From contig SVAP01000004.1 of NCBI GenBank assembly GCA_015059335.1, positions 20,258-84,257 on the forward strand: DNA of 64,000 nt, in the 5' to 3' direction. Made by a program: the position numbers and the translations under genes. A model generated the notes under the pieces. The model was given only the letters and a program-made list of their open reading frames with translations, searched no databases and was not told the origin of the DNA. The stretch's first letter is position 1, and each line of letters starts with the position of its first letter. Shown one piece after another: positions 53,767 to 64,000 of this stretch. This DNA comes from Bacillota bacterium (GTDB lineage Bacteria > Bacillota_I > Bacilli_A > RF39 > UBA660).

Positions 53767-53767
53767 G

Positions 53768-53796
53768 GACTAATTTAGTCCTTTTTTTCATACAAT
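53768..53796 (+). promoter_or_regulatory. SigmaE-like promoter of dacB
   Basis: GACTAAT-14-CATACAAT; the -10 matches the sigmaE consensus; dacB is sigmaE-controlled in B. subtilis. Confidence 0.6.
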
Positions 53797-53812
53797 TTTA
53801 TAGGTGGTAAAC

Positions 53813-54163
53813 ATGAAAAAATTAGTTGTAATAATTAGTTTAATATTATTTTTAATACCTAATAAGACTTATGCACTAGGGGAGTCTTCATCATCTATTA
53901 CAGTTATGGATATGGATACTGGTAGAGTTTTATATAGTAAAAACCAAAGCGAGAAAAGACTTATTGCATCTATTACAAAAATAATGACTGCGATAGTTGC
54001 GATTGAAAGTGGTAAGCTAAATGATATAGTTGTAGTAGATGATAGTATTTTAAAAGCGTATGGTTCTGGTATTTATATTGAAATAGGTGAACAAATAAGA
54101 TTAGAAGATTTAGTGTATGGTCTTATGCTTAGAAGCGGTAATGAACTAGCAATTACGGAATAG
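53813..54163 (+). pseudogene. dacB: 5' fragment of a DacB-like S11 D-Ala-D-Ala carboxypeptidase, interrupted after the SGN motif
   Basis: Signal peptide, IASITKIMT (SxxK) and LRSGN (SxN), then ELAITE-stop; no KTG motif or C-terminal half in the window. Confidence 0.8.
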
Positions 54164-54328
54164 CAGTTGGAACTTATGAAAGAAGATTTAATAATATAAC
54201 CTCATTTAAACCTTATGATATAACATATTATTGGAAATTATATATATAACAATTGACTTAGTATATTTTATATAAATCTACAAAGGGTGCTATTAAATAG
54301 CATCTTTTTTTCATAGGAGGAGGTTATT

Positions 54329-55102
54329 ATGTCAGTATTTAAAATTGAAAAGAATAAAAATTATACAGTAATGAGTAATTATCATTTAAGAGATAAAAAT
54401 TTAACTTATAAAGCAAAAGGTCTATTATCGTTTATGTTAAGCTTACCTGAGGATTGGGACTACTCACTTGCAGGGTTATGTGCTATTAGTAAAGAAAGTA
54501 GAGATGGAATAAGATCCATATTAAAAGAATTGCAAGAACATCATTATGTTGAAATAGAAAAGGTTAGAGGGGATAAAGGTTATTTTGAGTATAATTATTT
54601 GATATATGAAATACCACATTTTATTGAAGTAGAAAAAGAAAAAACTAATCCAGATATGGAAAATCCACACCTGGATAATCCAAATGTGGAAACAACTACA
54701 CAAATAAATACTAATATAATAAATACTAATAAACAAATAGATAAAGATGATAAAACCATTTCATCTTTTTTTATACCTGAAGAACACAATATTTTGACAT
54801 TAGAATTAGTCAATAGGGGATATATAAATGAAACTGATACACAAATATTTTATTATGATAAATTATTTGAAGATTTATTAAGTGAAGGTAATTCGTATAA
54901 AGATTTAGTTCAAATAATTCATTACATCATTCCTAGAGTTGTAAATAGAAAGTTTAAAGATGAAGATGGCAATGATATAAATAATAAATTTGGATATTTT
55001 AAAAATGCTATAATTAGTAATATTAAAAAATTAAATTATGATTACGAAGATTTATGGGGAGAAGATGAGTATGATTGGTTAAATGATGATTTAGAAAGAT
55101 AA
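54329..55102 (+). CDS. Phage/ICE-type replication-initiator-like helix-turn-helix protein
   Basis: KNKNYTVMSNYHLRDKNL..AKGLLSFMLSLPEDWD..ESRDGIRSILKEL..Y, typical of Firmicutes element replication HTH proteins; RBS AGGAGGAGG. Confidence 0.8.
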   Translation: MSVFKIEKNKNYTVMSNYHLRDKNLTYKAKGLLSFMLSLPEDWDYSLAGLCAISKESRDGIRSILKELQEHHYVEIEKVRGDKGYFEYNYLIYEIPHFIEVEKEKTNPDMENPHLDNPNVETTTQINTNIINTNKQIDKDDKTISSFFIPEEHNILTLELVNRGYINETDTQIFYYDKLFEDLLSEGNSYKDLVQIIHYIIPRVVNRKFKDEDGNDINNKFGYFKNAIISNIKKLNYDYEDLWGEDEYDWLNDDLER

Positions 55103-55112
55103 AATTATACAC

Positions 55113-55228
55113 AAAAAAAATCGTCTCTTTACTAGCAGACGACCTACTACTTAACCTATATACTACATTACTGCATAGGTTATGTCAGATTTCACGGCAC
55201 TACTTAATACTACTTGTGTCATCTGACA
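55113..55228 (-). ncRNA. Candidate ~115-nt three-hairpin sRNA with repeated UAGUA motifs
   Basis: TTGACA-18-(TG)TATTAT promoter at 55263-55234; stems TGTCAGAT/ATCTGACA, TAACCTAT/ATAGGTTA, TCGTCT/AGACGA plus T8. Confidence 0.6.
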
Positions 55229-55327
55229 AATTAATAATATCATAAATTGTAATATATTGTCAATAATTAATTTTTTAAAGTTTAATATTAAATATTCAAT
55301 ATAGAATAATTAAGTATTTAATTCGTA

Positions 55328-55564
55328 CTATTTTCTATATTTTAAAATATCGTTTACATCACAATCTAATGCAAAACACATTCTTGCTATTATATCTATA
55401 TCTATTCTAATTACACGATTATGATAATAACGATTAACTAAATCATAATTAACTGCAATCATAGTACATAGTTTATTTCTACTTATATCTTTTTTATCTA
55501 ATACTTCTTTTAAAGTAATTTCTAATTTCCCATAATCTTTTAATGTATAAATATTATTATCCAT
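55328..55564 (-). CDS. XRE/Cro-C1-type HTH regulator
   Basis: LKEVLDKKDISRNKL..RIDIDIIARMCFALDCDVNDIL; ATG 55564 after GAGGTGG. Confidence 0.88.
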   Translation of the reverse strand: MDNNIYTLKDYGKLEITLKEVLDKKDISRNKLCTMIAVNYDLVNRYYHNRVIRIDIDIIARMCFALDCDVNDILKYRK

Positions 55565-55805
55565 AATTCCACCTCTCATATTTTAATTATTTATTGATTA
55601 AAATATAAAACTTTAAAGTTATATCCAATTTAATTATATTTGAAAATTATAAATTAAAAAATTACACAAAAATATTGCAATATTACTTATATTATTCTAA
55701 ATAATGCAATATTTTATACAAAAAATGTAAAATATCGTTAAAATAAAAGATTTTATGTTATAATTATATATATAAGGATAGAAGTTATATTGAGGTGATG
55801 TAAAA

Positions 55806-56429
55806 ATGAAAACTACTATATATTTAATTAGACACAGTGAACCTTTTAAAGTTCATAGGGGAAATGTAAATGTAAGTGAGTCAATATTGATAGAAAATGA
55901 AAAATCTCCATTAAGTATAAATGGAGAAAAGATAGCTGAAAAATGGGCTACTAATGTTGAATTTAATGCTCTTGATGTGGTGTATTCTTCTAATTATGTT
56001 AGAGCAATGTCCACTGCTAAATATTTTGCACATAATAATAATCTTAAAGTAAATATAGATGAGAGATTTAATGAAAGAATACATGGAGTAGATAGTTGGG
56101 AAGAATTACCAAAGAATTTTGAATCTAATCAATTTGAAGATGAAAATTATAAAGTAGGATTTGGAGAATCTCAAAAAGATGTTCAAACTCGTATGTATTC
56201 TGCATTAGTTGAAGTTATGAAAAATTATAAAGGAAAAAGAATTGCTATAATATCACATTCAACTGCTATTGCATTTCTTTTAAAAATGTTTAGTGATGTT
56301 CAATATACTGGAGATTATTCATATAAAGAAAATAAATATTTTGATGGTAAATGGGATTATGTTGAAACATTTAAATTAGAATTTGATGAAAATAATGTTT
56401 TAGTAAATATTGCAAATATAAATGAATAA
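55806..56429 (+). CDS. Histidine phosphatase (PGM family)
   Basis: YLIRHSE, SSNYVRAMST, ISHS. Confidence 0.9.
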   Translation: MKTTIYLIRHSEPFKVHRGNVNVSESILIENEKSPLSINGEKIAEKWATNVEFNALDVVYSSNYVRAMSTAKYFAHNNNLKVNIDERFNERIHGVDSWEELPKNFESNQFEDENYKVGFGESQKDVQTRMYSALVEVMKNYKGKRIAIISHSTAIAFLLKMFSDVQYTGDYSYKENKYFDGKWDYVETFKLEFDENNVLVNIANINE

Positions 56430-56490
56430 AAACAAATATATACTAACCAAATAAAAAAAATAGATACTATTAAAGTGAAGGGGATGTAAT

Positions 56491-56991
56491 ATGAATGATG
56501 AATTATACAATAAGTATCATAATCAATTATTTAGATGGTGTATAACTAAAGCAAATAATTATAGTGATGCTGAAGACCTTTTGCAAGAAATTAATTATCA
56601 ATTAGCAGTTGCATTTTCTAGAGATGTTTTGATTGTTGATGAAGAAAGATTTATTTGGAAGGTTGCATATTATACTTGGTGTAAAAAAGTAAAGGAATAT
56701 AATAAAAATAAAAATGTAGTATCAATAACAGATGAGATGGAAAGCATTTTAAAAGATGAGAGTATTGATATCCTGAAACAAGTTGAGATGACAGAAGTAA
56801 AAGATATATTACTAAATCATATTTCTAAATTAGATATTACATCAAAAAAGTGTATAATTCTTTATTATTATGAAGGCCTTTCAATAAAAGAAATTGCTAA
56901 AACTTTAAATATTAAAGAAAATTTAGTTAAATATTATCTTTATAAAGCAAGAAATCAATTGAGAAAGGAATTGGAAAATGAAAACATTTAA
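56491..56991 (+). CDS. ECF-type sigma-70 family factor
   Basis: DAEDLLQE region 2; LYYYEGLSIKEIA..LVKYYLYKAR region 4. Confidence 0.88.
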   Translation: MNDELYNKYHNQLFRWCITKANNYSDAEDLLQEINYQLAVAFSRDVLIVDEERFIWKVAYYTWCKKVKEYNKNKNVVSITDEMESILKDESIDILKQVEMTEVKDILLNHISKLDITSKKCIILYYYEGLSIKEIAKTLNIKENLVKYYLYKARNQLRKELENENI

Positions 56992-57832
56992 TGAATTGAT
57001 AGCATTAGCTAAAGAATATGCTAGAAAAGTCAAAAATAAAAATACTATATTATATGATCCTATCTTTAGAATTGAAGATGGAAATTTGTGTCTTGAATAT
57101 TTAATTGTTGAGTTCAATGATGAATTTAATAATGATTATAGAATTAAAAGACCAATAGAATGGTTTACACAGGACATATTAAGTGGTGAAATATTAAATT
57201 ATTATAATGTTAATGATAAAGATTATTCATTATTACCACTTGGCAAATTATTTGATAATAATGGTGAAAGTATTTTATATGACCAAAGTAATGATATTAC
57301 AAGAAGTTTTCAAAAATGGCAAAAAGATATCATTAAGCAAATAAAAGAAGAATATGAAAACTCAAATAATTTATTATATGATGAAAAGGTTATGAAAATA
57401 GAAAATACTATAATAAGTCCAAAAGAATATATATTGTCAAATATTGATAGTATTTTTGAAAAAATGTTCAATATGCTATTTGAAGATATGGGTAATGTTA
57501 TTAGTGATTCATATAATGAATATTTTGAAAGTTTGTTTAATGAAATTCGTAATAAATATATTAATGATAAAATCATTGATAAACGATTGATAAAACAATA
57601 TATGAATTTTCTTAAATATTCATGGCCAGAGTCTTTAGATTTATTTAATAATTGTACTAACATAAAAGAAATAAATGATGAAGGTTATGATAATGCTATT
57701 ATACAAATGTTGGAAGATAAAAAATTGAAAAGAGTAATTGAAAATCCTGGAATTTTTCCAGTTGAAATGCAAATTGATAATAATTGTACTGAGAGTGTAA
57801 TAAATAAAAAAGAAGGAAGTGGTGATGAATAA
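56978..57832 (+). CDS. Hypothetical soluble protein overlapping the sigma gene
   Basis: 284-aa ORF, 14-nt overlap, no TM. Confidence 0.75.
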   Translation: MKTFNELIALAKEYARKVKNKNTILYDPIFRIEDGNLCLEYLIVEFNDEFNNDYRIKRPIEWFTQDILSGEILNYYNVNDKDYSLLPLGKLFDNNGESILYDQSNDITRSFQKWQKDIIKQIKEEYENSNNLLYDEKVMKIENTIISPKEYILSNIDSIFEKMFNMLFEDMGNVISDSYNEYFESLFNEIRNKYINDKIIDKRLIKQYMNFLKYSWPESLDLFNNCTNIKEINDEGYDNAIIQMLEDKKLKRVIENPGIFPVEMQIDNNCTESVINKKEGSGDE

Positions 57833-58626
57833 TGAATGAATTTCAAAATATTAAGATGAGAATAAAAATGGCAATAATGATGGAACCTACTATATCATTA
57901 AAAATTCAACATGATTATTGTGATATGTTAGAAAATTGTAATAGTATGGAACAAATTCCTGAAGAATTGAAAAGATTTGTTAAAATCGTTTTAACAGAAA
58001 TGAGAGAAGAACAAGAAGAAATAGAAGAATCAAACAAAGAAAGAGAACCAATTATGAGTATAGATGAAGTGATTTCTTCTATTGATAAAACTATAAACGA
58101 TATTCAAAATGGTAATAATGTTTATACTGAAGAACAAATTCAAAATAAAGTAGAAAATTATCAACAACAAGCAAATCAATTGTTTGATTATATTGATGAA
58201 AATGGAAAAGTGAAAATACAAGAAGAATTTACTCCTAAAGTAAGAAAATATGATTGGAAAAGAGATTTAAGAAGTGGATTAGCAAGTTTAATAATTGCTC
58301 TTAATGATGATAATTATAATACTGTTTATGTTAAAGATAAAAACAATAATGATGTTTTACTTTATGTAAAAAACATAACTGAACTTCAAGAAATTTTTGA
58401 AAAATATAATTTATATATAGTACTTGATTACGATAAAGAAAGATTGGCAAATGAATATTTGAATCAAAGATTATTAGATTTGAGTGAAGAAAAATTAATG
58501 TTATGTTTATCATATTTATTGGAAAAATCAAAACAAGATTTAAGTATAATTGATAAATATCTAGGCAATCGTATTTTAGTTGGACTTGCAACATTATTAT
58601 ACAATCATTTATATAATTTAATTTAA
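57832..58626 (+). CDS. Hypothetical protein
   Basis: Stop/start coupled (TAATG) to the previous ORF. Confidence 0.75.
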   Translation: MNEFQNIKMRIKMAIMMEPTISLKIQHDYCDMLENCNSMEQIPEELKRFVKIVLTEMREEQEEIEESNKEREPIMSIDEVISSIDKTINDIQNGNNVYTEEQIQNKVENYQQQANQLFDYIDENGKVKIQEEFTPKVRKYDWKRDLRSGLASLIIALNDDNYNTVYVKDKNNNDVLLYVKNITELQEIFEKYNLYIVLDYDKERLANEYLNQRLLDLSEEKLMLCLSYLLEKSKQDLSIIDKYLGNRILVGLATLLYNHLYNLI

Positions 58627-58647
58627 ATAAGAAAGAGGGAATAAAAA

Positions 58648-59349
58648 ATGAAAGAATTAATTGAAAAAAGAAAACAATATACAAATACTTTAATGGAAGT
58701 TTATAAAAAGAAAAGTGAAGAATATTTAAATGATACTCAAAGTATCCTTGATCGTGAACAAGGTTTTAGAGAGTATATGAAAGAAAAAATATCAGTATCT
58801 AGTTTTCAAAAAGGACTAGATGACTTTGTTGAAGAAACAAAAAGAATTGGTAATAAAATAATTGCTGAAAAGAGTGAATTTAATGAATTATTAAATGAAT
58901 TTTCTTTAAAAGATAATGATTTTTCAGTTGCAATGCTTACTAATACTAGAAAAAATATATTTGATAAAGTAGAAGTAGAAAAAGTATTAAAAGAATTGGA
59001 AGATGAGTTTGATAATGAATACAAAACTATCATTTTAGATTATACTAATAAGTTAGACCAATTATTTGAAAAAATCAAAAAAATGGTAGAATTAAATAGA
59101 AAATTTGTTGTTGAATATGGTGGATTACAATTAACTGAAACTCCTGTAGAAAATGAATATAAACCAATATATGATATGCACGATCAAATTTATAATAAGT
59201 TTATATATGAATTTCAAACAGAGGCATATAGAATTAATTTTTTACCACAACAAATTAAATCTACATATACAAGAACAACTAAATTATTAGATGAAAATTA
59301 TGATATATTTAGTGATTTATTAAATGATTTAGAACAAAGTAATAGTTAA
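58648..59349 (+). CDS. Hypothetical helical protein
   Basis: RBS AGAGGG; 233-aa ORF. Confidence 0.75.
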   Translation: MKELIEKRKQYTNTLMEVYKKKSEEYLNDTQSILDREQGFREYMKEKISVSSFQKGLDDFVEETKRIGNKIIAEKSEFNELLNEFSLKDNDFSVAMLTNTRKNIFDKVEVEKVLKELEDEFDNEYKTIILDYTNKLDQLFEKIKKMVELNRKFVVEYGGLQLTETPVENEYKPIYDMHDQIYNKFIYEFQTEAYRINFLPQQIKSTYTRTTKLLDENYDIFSDLLNDLEQSNS

Positions 59350-59384
59350 TACTGTTTTGTTCAAAGAAAGGAGATAGTAAAATA

Positions 59385-59684
59385 ATGGAATTAGAAAAAA
59401 TTATTGAACTATTTTTAGAAGAAAAGATTAGTGCTAGAGAAGTTAGCGATATGCTTGACAATGATAAAATGATATTAGAAAGAATAAAAGACAAGTTTGA
59501 ATATGGAAAAATTATTCAAAAATTAAATAAAAAATATAAAGAAGTTATGAATCAGCCAGTAATATTACCATATCATTGTACATGGGAAGATACTATTATT
59601 GCTTTAATGATAGCAATTGAAAACAAAAAAAATGTTGAAGATGTGGCAAATGGTTTTTACCATTATGATGATAATATGTATTAA
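59385..59684 (+). CDS. Small hypothetical protein
   Basis: RBS AAGGAG; 99 aa. Confidence 0.7.
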   Translation: MELEKIIELFLEEKISAREVSDMLDNDKMILERIKDKFEYGKIIQKLNKKYKEVMNQPVILPYHCTWEDTIIALMIAIENKKNVEDVANGFYHYDDNMY

Positions 59685-59693
59685 TTAATAGAG

Positions 59694-60443
59694 GTGATAA
59701 TGATGAGATTTGATGTACCATCAATTGTAATAAATAAATTATTTGAACAAGGATATGAAGAACAAATTTTGGATGCCGTTATGGCGTTTGAAACAGATTC
59801 TAGTAAAGAAGTTAGTGATATACCATTATCACCTGCTTTAATTAATGACAATGGAGAAAATATTATTTTTACAAATGAAGTTTTACAAGAATATAAAAAT
59901 TTAGTTAAAAGAATTAAAAATCCTTCAACAGCTCAAGAAATACCATTTTTCTTATTGGGTAATACTAAAAATATTGATGGACAAGATTATGTAGTTGTTC
60001 AAGAAATTATATATTCCATAAATGGTAATTTAGATGATTTAAGAGTATCTATAGACGAAGGAAAATTTAGAGAGTTAGTAACTAATTCAAATTATGATGT
60101 TGTATCTATTGGGCATACACATGGTAATGTTAGTGAGGAGAAGAAACAACAATCTCTTACTAGACAATTACCACCTGATTTAGTTGAAAAATATGCAATT
60201 AGAGATGTTGGATTAAACATCTCGATTGCAGATATATGGCAACATGAAGCTTTTAAACAAATTGCTAGTCAATTAGGAAATAAGAAAATATTACAAAGTA
60301 TTATTATGTATAATGGAGATATTATTATGATTGATGATAATAGCATTAGTAAAAGCAACAATGTACAAGCAATTTTAGAAAATGGGAATATTATTAATTT
60401 ACCAACTTCTGTACAACAAGAAAATTTAAATATACACAGATGA
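59694..60443 (+). CDS. JAB/MPN+ (JAMM)-like metalloprotease domain protein
   Basis: QEIPFFLLG, GHTHG, then SIAD (E..HxH..SxxD) with an insertion. Confidence 0.6.
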   Translation: MIMMRFDVPSIVINKLFEQGYEEQILDAVMAFETDSSKEVSDIPLSPALINDNGENIIFTNEVLQEYKNLVKRIKNPSTAQEIPFFLLGNTKNIDGQDYVVVQEIIYSINGNLDDLRVSIDEGKFRELVTNSNYDVVSIGHTHGNVSEEKKQQSLTRQLPPDLVEKYAIRDVGLNISIADIWQHEAFKQIASQLGNKKILQSIIMYNGDIIMIDDNSISKSNNVQAILENGNIINLPTSVQQENLNIHR

Positions 60444-60456
60444 TTGGAGGCAGTAA

Positions 60457-61302
60457 ATGGATAAATTAAAAAAAGAAAATTATATCAAAGAACTTAAAAG
60501 AAAATTTAAGTTTAATAAAAAAACATTTAATTTATTTATAGAACATATAAAAAATTTTGAACTTGCTGAAGAAAAATTTAAAATTGAAAAACATTCATAT
60601 AAAGTTGGAGATGATGTTCTTTTGAAGAAAGGAACATTTATGCATGGAACAAGAAAAGGATATGATGGTTTAGAATTAATTATAGATAATGGGTTTTTGA
60701 GTACAAATATATTTAGTCCAAATGCAAAAGCTCAAAAAACACCTTATTGTGTTAGTATGTGGAACATTCAAAATGATATTCTATTAAAAGAATATGTAAA
60801 CTTATATAGTGGAATGACAATTAAATATACTGATTTTACTGATAAACCTACAACTAAATTAGTACCTTTTAATAAACTTGATGAAGAAATAGAAGATAGT
60901 AGAAAAGTTGATTTTTGGATGTGGACTGCAGAACAAACAAAAGAAATAAGATTTTTACCATCATTAATAAGGGATAACAATCAAATAGCATTTATTATTA
61001 ATACTGAAAGTGAGTATGCTAAAAAATTAATTGAAAATGATATTTTTAATTTAAATTTTGATAAGAAAATATTAAAATCATTTATTAGTGATTGGTTTAT
61101 AAAGAATTTCATATATGCAAAAAGAGATGATTTTACTACTAATAGAGAAAGTGCAATAATTTTTGGATTACCTAGTTGTTTTATAGAAGGTATTTTTGTA
61201 GGTAGAGTAATTGAGAATGATAAAGAAAAATTAGAACAAATAAAAAAACATTTTGAAAATTGCTATATTTGTAATTTGGATGGAAAAGTTATTATGGAGT
61301 AA
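60457..61302 (+). CDS. Hypothetical protein, putative ADP-ribosyltransferase-like fold
   Basis: FMHGT..IIDNGFLS..YCVS..RES pattern; fold is inference. Confidence 0.5.
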   Translation: MDKLKKENYIKELKRKFKFNKKTFNLFIEHIKNFELAEEKFKIEKHSYKVGDDVLLKKGTFMHGTRKGYDGLELIIDNGFLSTNIFSPNAKAQKTPYCVSMWNIQNDILLKEYVNLYSGMTIKYTDFTDKPTTKLVPFNKLDEEIEDSRKVDFWMWTAEQTKEIRFLPSLIRDNNQIAFIINTESEYAKKLIENDIFNLNFDKKILKSFISDWFIKNFIYAKRDDFTTNRESAIIFGLPSCFIEGIFVGRVIENDKEKLEQIKKHFENCYICNLDGKVIME

Positions 61303-61305
61303 AAA

Positions 61306-61767
61306 ATGAATTTAGATTTTACAAAAGAGAATTATAGATTTAATGCAAGAGTGTCAGCAATTATTTATAACAAGGATAAAACAAAAGTATTGCTTTTCAA
61401 AATAAATGATGGTAGAGATTTTTATATGTTACCTGGTGGAAGAATTGAATTAAATGAAGATAGTAAAACTGCAATATCCAGAGAAATAAATGAAGAACTT
61501 AACTATAATTTAGAATATGAGTTATGCTCTATTCAAGAAAACTTTGTTAGTAAAAGTAATATTAATATAATGCAATATTGTTTTTGCTATAAGGCAATAT
61601 ATAATGATGAAATAGAACGAATTAGTTTTAATTGTTTAGATAATGAAAATCAAATGTTTTATTGGACTGATATTAAAGATATTGATAAATTAAATATATT
61701 ACCTATATCTAATAAAAATTTGATTAAAGAACAATTTAATGAAATCCAACATATTATAGAAAAATAA
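61306..61767 (+). CDS. NUDIX hydrolase
   Basis: GGRIELNEDSKTAISREINEELN Nudix box. Confidence 0.92.
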   Translation: MNLDFTKENYRFNARVSAIIYNKDKTKVLLFKINDGRDFYMLPGGRIELNEDSKTAISREINEELNYNLEYELCSIQENFVSKSNINIMQYCFCYKAIYNDEIERISFNCLDNENQMFYWTDIKDIDKLNILPISNKNLIKEQFNEIQHIIEK

Positions 61768-61792
61768 TTAAATATAGAAGTTTGGTGGTGAT

Positions 61793-63556
61793 TTGATGTT
61801 TGATAACGAATTGAAACAATTATTTGATAATATTCAGTATAAATTAAAATCTAATTCTGAAACAACTTTATCAGATATCGAACAAGAAATATCGTCTATA
61901 AGAAAAAGAGTTGTAACTAAAATAGGAGATATATTATCATATAATGGAATTTCTTTTGATCTTTATAAATTGGAAGGAATAGTAGAAGATTATTTATCAA
62001 ATGAATTAAAACAATTTAATAAAAAGTTTCTTGTTGAAAACTTTCAAAAATTAGCAACCTTTAATTCTTCAGTTCAAGGTTTTATATCTCAACAAGCAAA
62101 ACAGCAAACTGATAAATCAAAAAAAGAGCAAACTGTTGAAGAAATGATGAAAAAAATGGATTATACTATGTCAGAGTATAAAAAAATAACAATAAATTTA
62201 AATGAACAATTTAATAAGTTATTTAAAAAAATATTAAAAGAAAATCCTTTGTATGATAGACCACAAGCAGTAGAAGATATTAAAAGAGTTCTAACATCTG
62301 AAATGAAAGCAGCTCAAGAATATTTAAAAGATAAAAGAAATCAAATTGTTACATCAAATACTACATTAATTATAGAAAGTTCAAAAAGATTAAGCGAACA
62401 TACTGATTATGTTTCAACAACAATGGAACAACCTGAACAAGTGGTTGAGCAAATTAAAAAAGTTGAAGAATCAATTGATAGGGAAATACAAACATCTTAT
62501 GAACAAGATAAATCTTTAGAAGAAACTAATATTACACAAACTACTACTTCTCCAAAAGTTGAATATCAAAGTCCTATTCAAACTGAAAAAAGAGATGATG
62601 TATCAGTAGTAGAAACAAATAATGATGATTATAAAACTTTATATGCTCCAAGTTTTAAATCTTTTGAATCACAAATGTCTAATCAATCAAATGAAGAAAA
62701 ACAAAATTATAGGATTTTAGAAGATGGAACTATAGAGTGGAAACAAGATCCTAGAAAGAATATGTTTACTGATGAAGAAATACAAATGTTTAATAGTCAG
62801 AGTCAAGCACCAACTATAGTTGATAATGAAATAAGAATTATTGATGCAGTAAAGAACCAAATGAATCAACATGTTTGGAAAGATATAGGATTGTATGCAA
62901 CTAGAACAGATACAACGATTGATAATGTTTCTAATGAAATGTTAAGAGAAGTTAGTATTTTATTACAACAAAATGGAATACCAAATAATCCTAATATAAC
63001 TATGCAAATAATCCAACAATTAAATAGTGAGTTAAAAGAAGTTAATAATAATTTAAGTGCTAATATGGTAACTACTTTCACAAATATAAATAATGCAACA
63101 ATGGACTCTATTTCTCAAACATTTTCAATGCAACCAGATGTAAAAGAACAAGAAGTTCAACAATGTTTAGATGTATATTTACAAACTACACAATTAAGAG
63201 GATTTCATTTGAATTGCTCTAATCAATTTGGAAAAGTAGTTAGAGATATATGCAGTCAATATGGTATAAAACAAAATTCTCCACAATTTATAGAAATAAC
63301 AAGAATAGTAGAAAGTAAAAGGATACAGGTAGAAAGTCAATTACATAATATGTTTAATGATTTTTCTAATAGTAATGCCAATTATATTTCTAATACAATT
63401 GGAAGTACAATGTTATCTCAACAATATGTGCAAGGATTACAACAAGAACTAACACCACAACAAATTCAAATGTTATTAGATTACAATAGAACAGAAATAG
63501 AAAAAAATTATAGTATGGAACAAATGCATCAAGATGTAGTGGGAATGTCAAGATAG
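61793..63556 (+). CDS. Gln-rich coiled-coil hypothetical protein
   Basis: 587-aa ORF, Q/E/T-rich linker, ends VVGMSR. Confidence 0.75.
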   Translation: MMFDNELKQLFDNIQYKLKSNSETTLSDIEQEISSIRKRVVTKIGDILSYNGISFDLYKLEGIVEDYLSNELKQFNKKFLVENFQKLATFNSSVQGFISQQAKQQTDKSKKEQTVEEMMKKMDYTMSEYKKITINLNEQFNKLFKKILKENPLYDRPQAVEDIKRVLTSEMKAAQEYLKDKRNQIVTSNTTLIIESSKRLSEHTDYVSTTMEQPEQVVEQIKKVEESIDREIQTSYEQDKSLEETNITQTTTSPKVEYQSPIQTEKRDDVSVVETNNDDYKTLYAPSFKSFESQMSNQSNEEKQNYRILEDGTIEWKQDPRKNMFTDEEIQMFNSQSQAPTIVDNEIRIIDAVKNQMNQHVWKDIGLYATRTDTTIDNVSNEMLREVSILLQQNGIPNNPNITMQIIQQLNSELKEVNNNLSANMVTTFTNINNATMDSISQTFSMQPDVKEQEVQQCLDVYLQTTQLRGFHLNCSNQFGKVVRDICSQYGIKQNSPQFIEITRIVESKRIQVESQLHNMFNDFSNSNANYISNTIGSTMLSQQYVQGLQQELTPQQIQMLLDYNRTEIEKNYSMEQMHQDVVGMSR

Positions 63557-63568
63557 GAGTGAAATTTT

Positions 63569-63901
63569 ATGTATCAATCACAAATAGCAGTTAATTTAAA
63601 AAAGAAAATTGATGAAGAAATGCAAAATTTTAAAACTCAAAATTCCTTAATGACATTAGATGAACAAATTTTAAATGCAAAGAATAAAGATGAGTTGATA
63701 AGCATAAAAAATCATTTAGCAGATATACAAGAGATGGAATTAATGCAACAACAAGGTTTAAGTCAAACCAAACAAAAAACAAAAATTTTATTAAAAAAAG
63801 CAGGATTTGTAGATGTATTAGGGTTATGTATGCTTGTAGGTTTTATAGTAGGAATAGGTATAGGAATAGGATATATTTTATATAGATTTGGATTAAAATA
63901 A
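63569..63901 (+). CDS. Small protein with a C-terminal membrane anchor
   Basis: Basic KQKTKILLKKAGF followed by a hydrophobic C-terminal helix. Confidence 0.75.
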   Translation: MYQSQIAVNLKKKIDEEMQNFKTQNSLMTLDEQILNAKNKDELISIKNHLADIQEMELMQQQGLSQTKQKTKILLKKAGFVDVLGLCMLVGFIVGIGIGIGYILYRFGLK

Positions 63902-63926
63902 AACTTTTAAATATGAGGTAGTAAAG

Positions 63927-64000
63927 ATGAAAAAAAAGAAAGAAATAAATAATAGTATAAAAATTTTAAAATACTTTAAGACTGCTAAATTAAGTGTAGT
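63927..64000 (+). CDS. 5' end of a CDS running out of the window
   Basis: GAGG RBS, ATG, open frame MKKKKEINNSIKILKYFKTAKLSV. Confidence 0.5.
   Translation, partial: MKKKKEINNSIKILKYFKTAKLSV

Follow-up and report, generated by a model that had tools for sequence, protein, structure and literature searches.

An integrated, probably conjugative element splits the sporulation gene dacB at its SxN active-site codons in an uncultured gut bacterium and may be excised in the mother cell

We analysed a 64,000-nucleotide stretch of DNA from an uncultured Bacillota bacterium of the RF39 lineage, called the window here, which corresponds to positions 20258-84257 of contig C13 (SVAP01000004.1) in a host assembly of 1.30 Mb with 25% G+C and 18 contigs that is 89.7% complete. 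Towards its right end the sporulation gene dacB is interrupted by an element that has entered within the codons for the SxN active-site motif. It is practically certain that a large serine recombinase (LSR) element occupies this site, with defined junctions and crossover core, intact gene halves, a recombinase and wide recurrence in other hosts. By analogy with known systems we propose that the element is excised in the sporulating mother cell, which would restore DacB, and we estimate the probability of this whole statement, timing included, at roughly 0.55. In the proposed mechanism, the LSR would insert the element into dacB, which opens the mother-cell operon dacB-spmA-spmB, and recombination between attL and attR by the same enzyme would remove it scarlessly, restoring a 356 amino acid (aa) DacB and the operon. 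This would take place in the sporulating mother cell, as with skin, SPbeta and gin, with a 68-aa protein serving as directionality factor, and the spore genome would keep the element. We infer excision itself, its timing and the role of the 68-aa protein from the evidence set out below.

The open reading frame (ORF) at 53813-54163 of the window encodes 116 aa, of which residues 1-110 are DacB. These residues match positions 11-109 of Peptidase_S11 (PF00768) with 68.9 bits in a Pfam search, and share 88% identity with the N-terminus of an uninterrupted 356-aa orthologue from the same genus. They include the SxxK motif (ASITK), and the DacB sequence breaks off straight after S-G-N: same-genus orthologues read ...LMLRSGN and then DAAL..., whereas the window frame continues with ELAITE and a stop. 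An identical 116-aa product was found on 19 public contigs. The identity of the gene as dacB, encoding the sporulation D,D-carboxypeptidase PBP5*, follows the combination of an S11 peptidase with SxxK, SxN and KTG motifs and of spmA-spmB downstream, as seen on a same-strain contig and in relatives. The features of the left junction are as follows.

53767..53796, forward strand: dacB control region, comprising hairpin GGACTAATTTAGTCC, a T-run and then CATACAAT, an arrangement that recurs in other genera.
53813..54142, forward strand: dacB 5' half, codons 1-110, up to S-G-N of the SxN active-site motif (PF00768; same-genus orthologue).
54143..54144, forward strand: GA crossover dinucleotide (comparison of attL, attR and attB across hosts).
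54145..54200, forward strand: element arm of attL (P'), AACTAGCAATTACGGAATAGCAGTTGGAACTTATGAAAGAAGATTTAATAATATAAC, kept in 5 genome loci and on 16 metagenome contigs.

DNA comparison showed that host DNA ends with AAT at 54142 and that foreign sequence begins at 54145, from where the element arm gives the truncated DacB its ELAITE codons and stop. The crossover therefore lies between the N codon of the SxN motif and the following D codon. At the junction, GA are the sole bases common to attL (...GGNAAT/GA/ACTAGC...), attR (...CGCCAGG/GA/TGCNGC...) and attB (...GGTAAT/GA/TGCAGC...), and an overlap of just 2 bp is what a serine recombinase would produce. The reconstructed attP forms an imperfect dyad around GA, whose arms match at 16/22 positions by our own count, and this symmetry is more meaningful than a small inverted repeat at 54144-54168. 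A preliminary description of the window, made from its letters, had placed attL at 54120-54170 behind an intact DacB N-terminus ending at SGN; the 110 codons are indeed intact, and the left junction is now placed at 54143 onward. Its reading 'LRSGN-GA' was right about the break after SGN, and the residues following N are corrected here to ELAITE. The inverted repeat it reported is present, Pfam and PHROG agree with its initiator-like gene, XRE regulator and cargo to the right of the junction, and the reconstruction of attB and attP that it suggested gives the GA core and imperfectly symmetric arms described above.

The far end of the element was not found in the host's own assembly, where searches with Pfam and with tblastn, using the paralogue and five orthologue C-termini, detected no dacB 3' half, spmA/spmB, rluB or close cognate LSR. 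Contig C13 ends 7.1 kb past the window, still within accessory genes. An exact-protein look-up identified contig L058 (JGI sample 3300022753), which is 100% identical to C13:78757-91110 and extends 5.2 kb beyond it through a 1291-aa SpaA-type adhesin, a sortase and a small resolvase-like gene. Because L058 continues into the adhesin, we place the contig break at this repeated gene. A query with the C-terminal 246 aa of a same-genus DacB identified a 242-aa dacB 3' fragment (P0004), 93% identical, on 20 contigs. The dacB right end is carried by L087, a 92.8-kb contig from the same sample (3300022753), in the order 76-aa and 168-aa ORFs, 68-aa ORF, 567-aa LSR, dacB 3' half, spmA, spmB, yoeB/yefM and rluB. 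The 3' half begins exactly at D-A-A, contains KTG and covers PF00768 positions 111-238, and the Gate-domain genes spmA and spmB are directly downstream of it. Contigs with the left junction, the interior and the right junction occur together in several of the samples. Since the right end is present in the same sample, we take its lack in the host assembly to reflect assembly incompleteness. The preliminary description had expected a recombinase and the 3' half of dacB at the far end: both exist and abut each other, and the 3' half starts with DAA, has KTG and is followed by spmA-spmB, all on L087 and not on this contig or in this assembly. Its reading would have been refuted by a missing 3' half or recombinase, or by decay of the halves indicating simple inactivation; both halves are open and undecayed, and the LSR is present.

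Joining the window 5' half and the L087 3' half in silico at GA gave one open 356-aa frame. This composite DacB contains ASITK, RSGN and GGKTG, and aligns without gaps to intact orthologues at 92-93% identity. In-silico excision likewise restored an intact ORF in genomes G013 and G006 and in locus L040, and all of the 3' halves looked at (17/17) are open. For this species, 19 contigs carry the 5' fragment and 20 the 3' fragment, and no intact allele is on record. The LSR gene is followed on the same strand by the dacB 3' half and spmA-spmB, in frames that overlap or abut (L087 1549-4534; L025 14231-16658), and the coordinates show no gene or gap in between. While the element is integrated, its recombinase promoter might drive transcription of spmAB.

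The 567-aa LSR matches PF00239 (110.9 bits), PF07508 (56.7 bits) and PF13408 (27.2 bits), all above cut-offs, and contains a serine motif of the YxRVST..Q type (FYARVSTDRYEQ). After its zinc ribbon, a K/E-rich stretch at about residues 395-480 occupies the place of the coiled-coil insert. The PHROG match is to integrase (E 2.5e-107), and the best solved relative is 3g13, a 'putative conjugative transposon recombinase' (E 1.9e-40). The gene abuts attR in L087 and in all relatives, and is absent from the window as well as the host's assembly. Its frame crosses attR, and the final ~12 residues are host-encoded; the C-terminal tail thus comprises 12 host-encoded residues when integrated versus ~35 element-encoded residues after excision. 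For most of the divergent pairs, which include elements of 5.8-15 kb without transfer genes seen, LSR dN/dS is 0.05-0.13.

The 68-aa ORF and the LSR gene are the only universally conserved genes of these elements, located at the far end and transcribed towards the dacB 3' half. The ORF was present in 14/14 elements with a median dN/dS of 0.21, and is apparently co-transcribed with the LSR gene. It has a TTG start and a good ribosome-binding site, and is preceded by a terminator hairpin and then ~45 nt of conserved, AT-rich sequence. AlphaFold2 predicted a helical hairpin for its product (pLDDT 83, 12-sequence alignment). The six best Foldseek matches in the PDB were all to the coiled-coil motif of a Listeria innocua prophage LSR (5uae, 4kis, 5u96), with TM 0.65-0.77, rmsd 0.6-1.9 A, identity 24-26% and E values of 0.17-1.3, which are not significant. 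Profile and Smith-Waterman comparisons aligned the 68-aa protein to the coiled-coil tip of its own LSR, residues 437-464 (EITISEYETL vs EIDLQEYNTL), with a shuffle p of 0.02-0.035, and a profile sequence search of the PDB detected nothing significant. The structural model and this alignment weakly suggest that the 68-aa protein is a free-standing coiled-coil mimic and a possible directionality factor. It is doubtful, if conceivable, that the protein acts as a copy of the LSR coiled-coil that competes with auto-inhibitory contacts at attL and attR, in a guild of elements, from 5.8-kb cassettes to ~45-kb conjugative elements, that land in the SxN codons of the cortex carboxypeptidase genes dacB and dacF and are excised in the sporangium. 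The 167/168-aa ORF upstream was also considered as directionality factor and was rejected, as it is absent or truncated in several elements.

The region upstream of dacB is consistent with expression in the mother cell. The sequence CATACAAT is located at 53789-53796, 16 nt ahead of the dacB ATG, and is preceded by the hairpin and T-run; the same hairpin-T7-CATAnnnT arrangement is found upstream of dacB in 10/12 genomes from other species and genera. CATACAAT fits a mother-cell sigmaE/sigmaK-type 'CATA' -10 by the B. subtilis consensus for these factors, and a sigma-70 promoter scan gave no more than background level. With the conserved CATAcaaT -10 and what is known from B. subtilis, dacB would be expressed in the mother cell. 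The host carries sigmaE-like, intact sigmaK-like and sigmaF genes as well as spoIVA. Across genera, the inverted repeat GGACTAAnTTAGTCC recurs with T7 and CATAnnnT before dacB (L006-L015, L026) while the upstream genes differ. A half-site of this repeat resembles the SpoIIID box (GGACAAG-like), and the repeat may do more than act as a terminator.

We investigated how widely this arrangement occurs. At least 25 further genomes and contigs, drawn from several genera, have the same module at this codon, and twelve species-representative genomes hold the LSR at 88-100% identity. Carriers include uncultured Bacilli, 'Clostridium sp. CAG:417', 'CAG:762' and 'Mollicutes UMGS1266', from human, rabbit, goat and deer. 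In 11/11 LSR genomes with enough flanking sequence, the dac 3' half starts exactly at the D codon. The element arm was found on 16 metagenome contigs, fused to dacB at ...RSGN in 13, to a dacF-like gene at ...ASGN in one, and elsewhere in two. By our own tally, dacB is the target in 23/27 junctions of this LSR clade. Two human gut loci, L050 and L055, have the left arm and a truncated initiator gene abutting a 3' remnant of a CaCA-type membrane-protein gene, which may represent either a secondary insertion site or a copy that has been rearranged and is decaying. A close LSR is present in 4 of 301 species sampled from the host family, and a sister LSR clade, 50-58% identical, in 16/301 genomes of that family. 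Insertions at the same SxN/D codon of the dacF-like paralogue were seen for the sister clade at L109-L112 and L114 (G205, G159, G104, G240, G283) and for two members of this clade at L037 and L044. The dacF-like 3' half of G283 is cut again by a second serine-recombinase element ~106 codons further on. In G015 (L027/L028; C52, C28), this dacB codon is occupied by another element, with different arms and a GATG-like core, adjoining a 532-aa frame that ends in an LSR-like C-terminus.

Genomes G013 and G006, from other genera, have both dacB halves on one contig, and their elements are 15,166 and 15,010 bp. The two elements share just two stretches: ~960 bp at the left (arm and initiator-like gene, 92% identical) and ~2.5 kb at the right (68-aa ORF and LSR, 86% identical); their cargo is unrelated. 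Other hosts have elements of 5.8 kb (L037), 9.7 kb, 9.9 kb and up to 15 kb, again with unrelated cargo. The body of the element in the window comprises the following features.

54329..55102, forward strand: HTH_36 winged-helix replication-initiator/DnaD-like protein, 257 aa (PF13730; PHROG replication initiation protein, E 1e-20).
55328..55579, reverse strand: XRE/Cro-type helix-turn-helix regulator, 83 aa (PF13443, E 3e-12).
55806..56991, forward strand: histidine phosphatase (207 aa; PF00300) and ECF-like sigma factor (166 aa; PF08281/PF04545).
56978..64000, forward strand: further cargo, mostly ORFs without a family, with a NUDIX hydrolase at 61306-61767; it runs off the window and C13.

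The DNA of the left-end initiator gene shares 81-83% identity with the elements of G013 and G006 at their left ends. For the element in this strain, we reconstructed the middle from close copies. Pig-gut contigs L073, L076 and L081 match the left-interior and right-end pieces of the same strain at 96.6-97.5% identity. The genes that bridge these pieces encode a single-stranded DNA-binding protein, a type IV secretion system (T4SS) pilin-like protein, DUF8208, an 836-aa VirB4/TraC-type ATPase, an M23 peptidase, a 649-aa coupling protein and a 2125-aa SNF2-type protein. One 30-kb scaffold connects the LSR to a gene that encodes exactly the same protein as one in the window element, and summing the offsets gave an element of about 44,965 bp (own arithmetic). 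The bridging copy comes from another host, as its dacB 3' half is only 54% identical to same-genus DacB; the contig chain thus crosses host species and was used solely as a scaffold for the element middle. From these 96-97% identical copies, this strain's element is probably a conjugative element of ~45 kb, with a middle presumably like theirs. Pfam detected no relaxase family among the element ORFs, and the left-end replication-initiator-like protein is a candidate only for this function.

Support for excision comes from the exact junction, the open halves, the purifying selection on the LSR and the presence of the split form only, on 19-20 contigs. In addition, the elements splitting mother-cell genes that have been tested excise in the mother cell (PMC5595907, PMC4191935, PMC5025042). 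Several observations weigh against developmental excision. Synonymous divergence (dS) between L087 and L105 is 1.04 for dacB and 1.07 for spmA versus 0.076 for the LSR, and between L029 and L030 it is 0.21 for host genes versus 0.03 for the LSR. By this measure (LSR dS 0.03-0.08 vs host 0.2-1.07) the elements are far younger than their hosts and have spread horizontally, so the intact halves may only reflect recent insertion. We also rejected dN/dS as proof of selection on the split halves, because the constraint may predate insertion when the split is younger than the host. In the sister LSR clade, 5/6 inspected insertions abut the dacF-like paralogue, at the same SxN/D codon, and dacF is expressed in the forespore in B. 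subtilis. The conserved ~45 nt between the terminator and the 68-aa ORF show no evident CATA-type -10. The LSR of L107 (ENA ERZ28654211 scaffold_31413, one sample of a sister species) has an internal stop and is called as genes of 169 and 349 aa, the nonsense codon marking either a locked copy or an assembly error. No match to the attP circle junction was found in metagenome or viral contigs, in a search for which the element arm alone, as positive control, gave 16 matches, all attL-type or other sites; and exact look-up in 15 billion proteins found no rejoined DacB for the four hosts queried. The lack of both in assemblies is as expected for a minority form. The T4SS genes were seen on near-identical contigs and not on this strain's own contigs, and a conjugative element would have its own reason to excise, apart from sporulation. 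For Tn5397, a cited title states that the LSR TndX suffices for integration and excision (PMC4430133). TndX offers a non-developmental model: a conjugative-transposon LSR with a GA core and a conserved domain-coding target (PMC4430133).

These points lead to the strongest alternative, a serious possibility that we nevertheless do not favour, in which a conjugative or mobilisable element uses dacB as a safe harbour. The LSR would target the conserved SxN-coding DNA of penicillin-binding protein 5 (PBP5)-type genes, which is present in every potential host and in genes dispensable for growth. Excision would then serve transfer and not be wired to sporulation, leaving carriers without DacB and perhaps without SpmAB, except where the element chances to depart. 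B. subtilis dacB, dacF and spmAB null mutants still sporulate, in keeping with this alternative, as are the T4SS that this strain's element most likely carries, the putative conjugative transposon recombinase (3g13) that is the LSR's nearest solved structure, the rapid transfer between species and genera, the targeting of the dacF-like paralogue both by this clade (L037, L044) and by the sister clade, and an LSR operon without a recognisable sporulation-type promoter. Tn5397/TndX likewise combines a GA core with a conserved domain-coding target, in that case Fic (PMC4430133). A purely transfer-driven cycle is harder to reconcile with the derivatives of 5.8-15 kb, which showed no transfer genes and keep the LSR and 68-aa ORF under strong purifying selection. 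It is also at odds with the strong bias to dacB (23/27 junctions), with an element that appears fixed in all ~20 sampled contigs of the species, and with the precedent cited above, in which every tested LSR element in a mother-cell gene excises during sporulation.

A locked element, with dacB a pseudogene heading for decay, is very unlikely. The host's own assembly without the right end, spmAB or the cognate LSR might have suggested this, as might the nonsense codon in the LSR of one related copy and the degenerate left end at a non-dac site in L050 and L055. However, the same samples contain the right end together with an intact LSR and an intact 3' half, all halves are open, the LSR is under purifying selection, and an assembly that is 89.7% complete and breaks at a repeated adhesin gene accounts for the missing part. 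We retain excision in the sporulating mother cell as the preferred, if provisional, reading.

The remaining genome of the host contains further genes related to those discussed here. The only other PBP5-type gene in the assembly is the dacF-like paralogue, which adjoins spoIIAA-sigF on C8. At this locus (L004; G000:C8:394500-399500) the dacF-like gene is divergent from spoIIAA and sigF, which have no spoIIAB ORF between them: a 116-aa SpoIIAA-like gene is directly followed by a 221-aa sigma factor gene. The 1.3-Mb genome has at least 9 further serine recombinase genes, on C8 (63-64 kb, 148-150 kb, 186-188 kb and 505-506 kb), C13 (160-1710), C17 (45.3-46.9 kb), C1 (38-40 kb) and C7 (43.4-46.7 kb), two of them in tandem on C7. 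A second T4SS-like region at G000:C4:336-1609 shares 70% identity with the pilin/DUF8208 part, and G000:C14:13725-14412 holds a paralogue of the replication-initiator-like gene, 66% identical; together these suggest another related mobile element in the host genome.

If excision is developmental, dacB-spmAB would join sigK, spsM, spoVFB, spoVR and gerE as targets of programmed rearrangement, and a horizontally spreading element would be plugged into the mother-cell programme of many hosts. To our knowledge, it would be the first such case for a cortex-maturation operon, for a conjugative-type element and for uncultured small-genome gut Bacilli. Should the guild with a coiled-coil mimic be real, many uncultured small-genome gut Bacilli would rely on the excision of mobile elements to mature their spore cortex. 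If excision is instead not tied to development, the LSR would use active-site-motif DNA as a universal landing pad, in parallel to Tn5397 and Fic, and some gut spore-formers would carry knocked-out cortex-trimming genes. In either case, the short, conserved att sites with a GA core and the compact pair of LSR and 68-aa protein may serve as a recombinase tool.

Full-text searches, with subscription journals outside their coverage, identified no paper naming dacB as the target of a gene-intervening element. Notable features of this element are its new target operon, its landing site in active-site codons and its probably conjugative carrier. The gin element in gerE of Bacillus cereus ATCC 10987 (GirC LSR and GirX) is, like the dacB element, a non-phage island splitting a mother-cell gene, and both have a serine recombinase with a small accessory factor and precise excision that restores the ORF, predicted in the case of dacB (PMC5595907). 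They differ in target (gerE versus the dacB SxN codons), in number of LSRs (three versus one) and in overlap (9 bp versus the 2-bp GA). Excision during sporulation has been demonstrated for gin (PMC5595907), whereas it is proposed here for the dacB element, which probably also has a conjugation apparatus. In skin(Cd) of Clostridioides difficile (LSR CD1231 and the 72-aa recombination directionality factor (RDF) CD1234), an LSR is likewise found at the split-gene junction together with a ~70-aa protein (PMC5025042). However, CD1234 has its own sigmaE/SpoIIID promoter, separate from the constitutive recombinase gene (PMC5025042), while the 68-aa ORF is directly upstream of the LSR without a recognisable sigmaE-type -10. 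The target of skin(Cd), which is prophage-like, is sigK (PMC5025042), and that of the element described here is dacB. Tn5397 with TndX resembles the dacB element as an LSR-moved conjugative element with a GA core and a motif-coding target that gives a broad host range (PMC4430133). It inserts in Fic-domain genes and has a Tn916-type conjugation module (PMC4430133), whereas the dacB element is in a sporulation operon, has a small conserved ORF with its LSR, and has cargo and T4SS genes that are unrelated to those of Tn5397 by annotation. SPbeta in spsM of Bacillus subtilis (SprA and SprB) is similarly mobile and yet intervenes in a sporulation gene, with an LSR and a small RDF (PMC4191935, PMC5499854). 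SPbeta is a phage whose sprB has its own sporulation-dependent promoter, and the dacB element is instead conjugative or island-like. Nevertheless, SPbeta illustrates that recent, horizontally spreading elements can still be developmentally excised (PMC4191935, PMC5499854).

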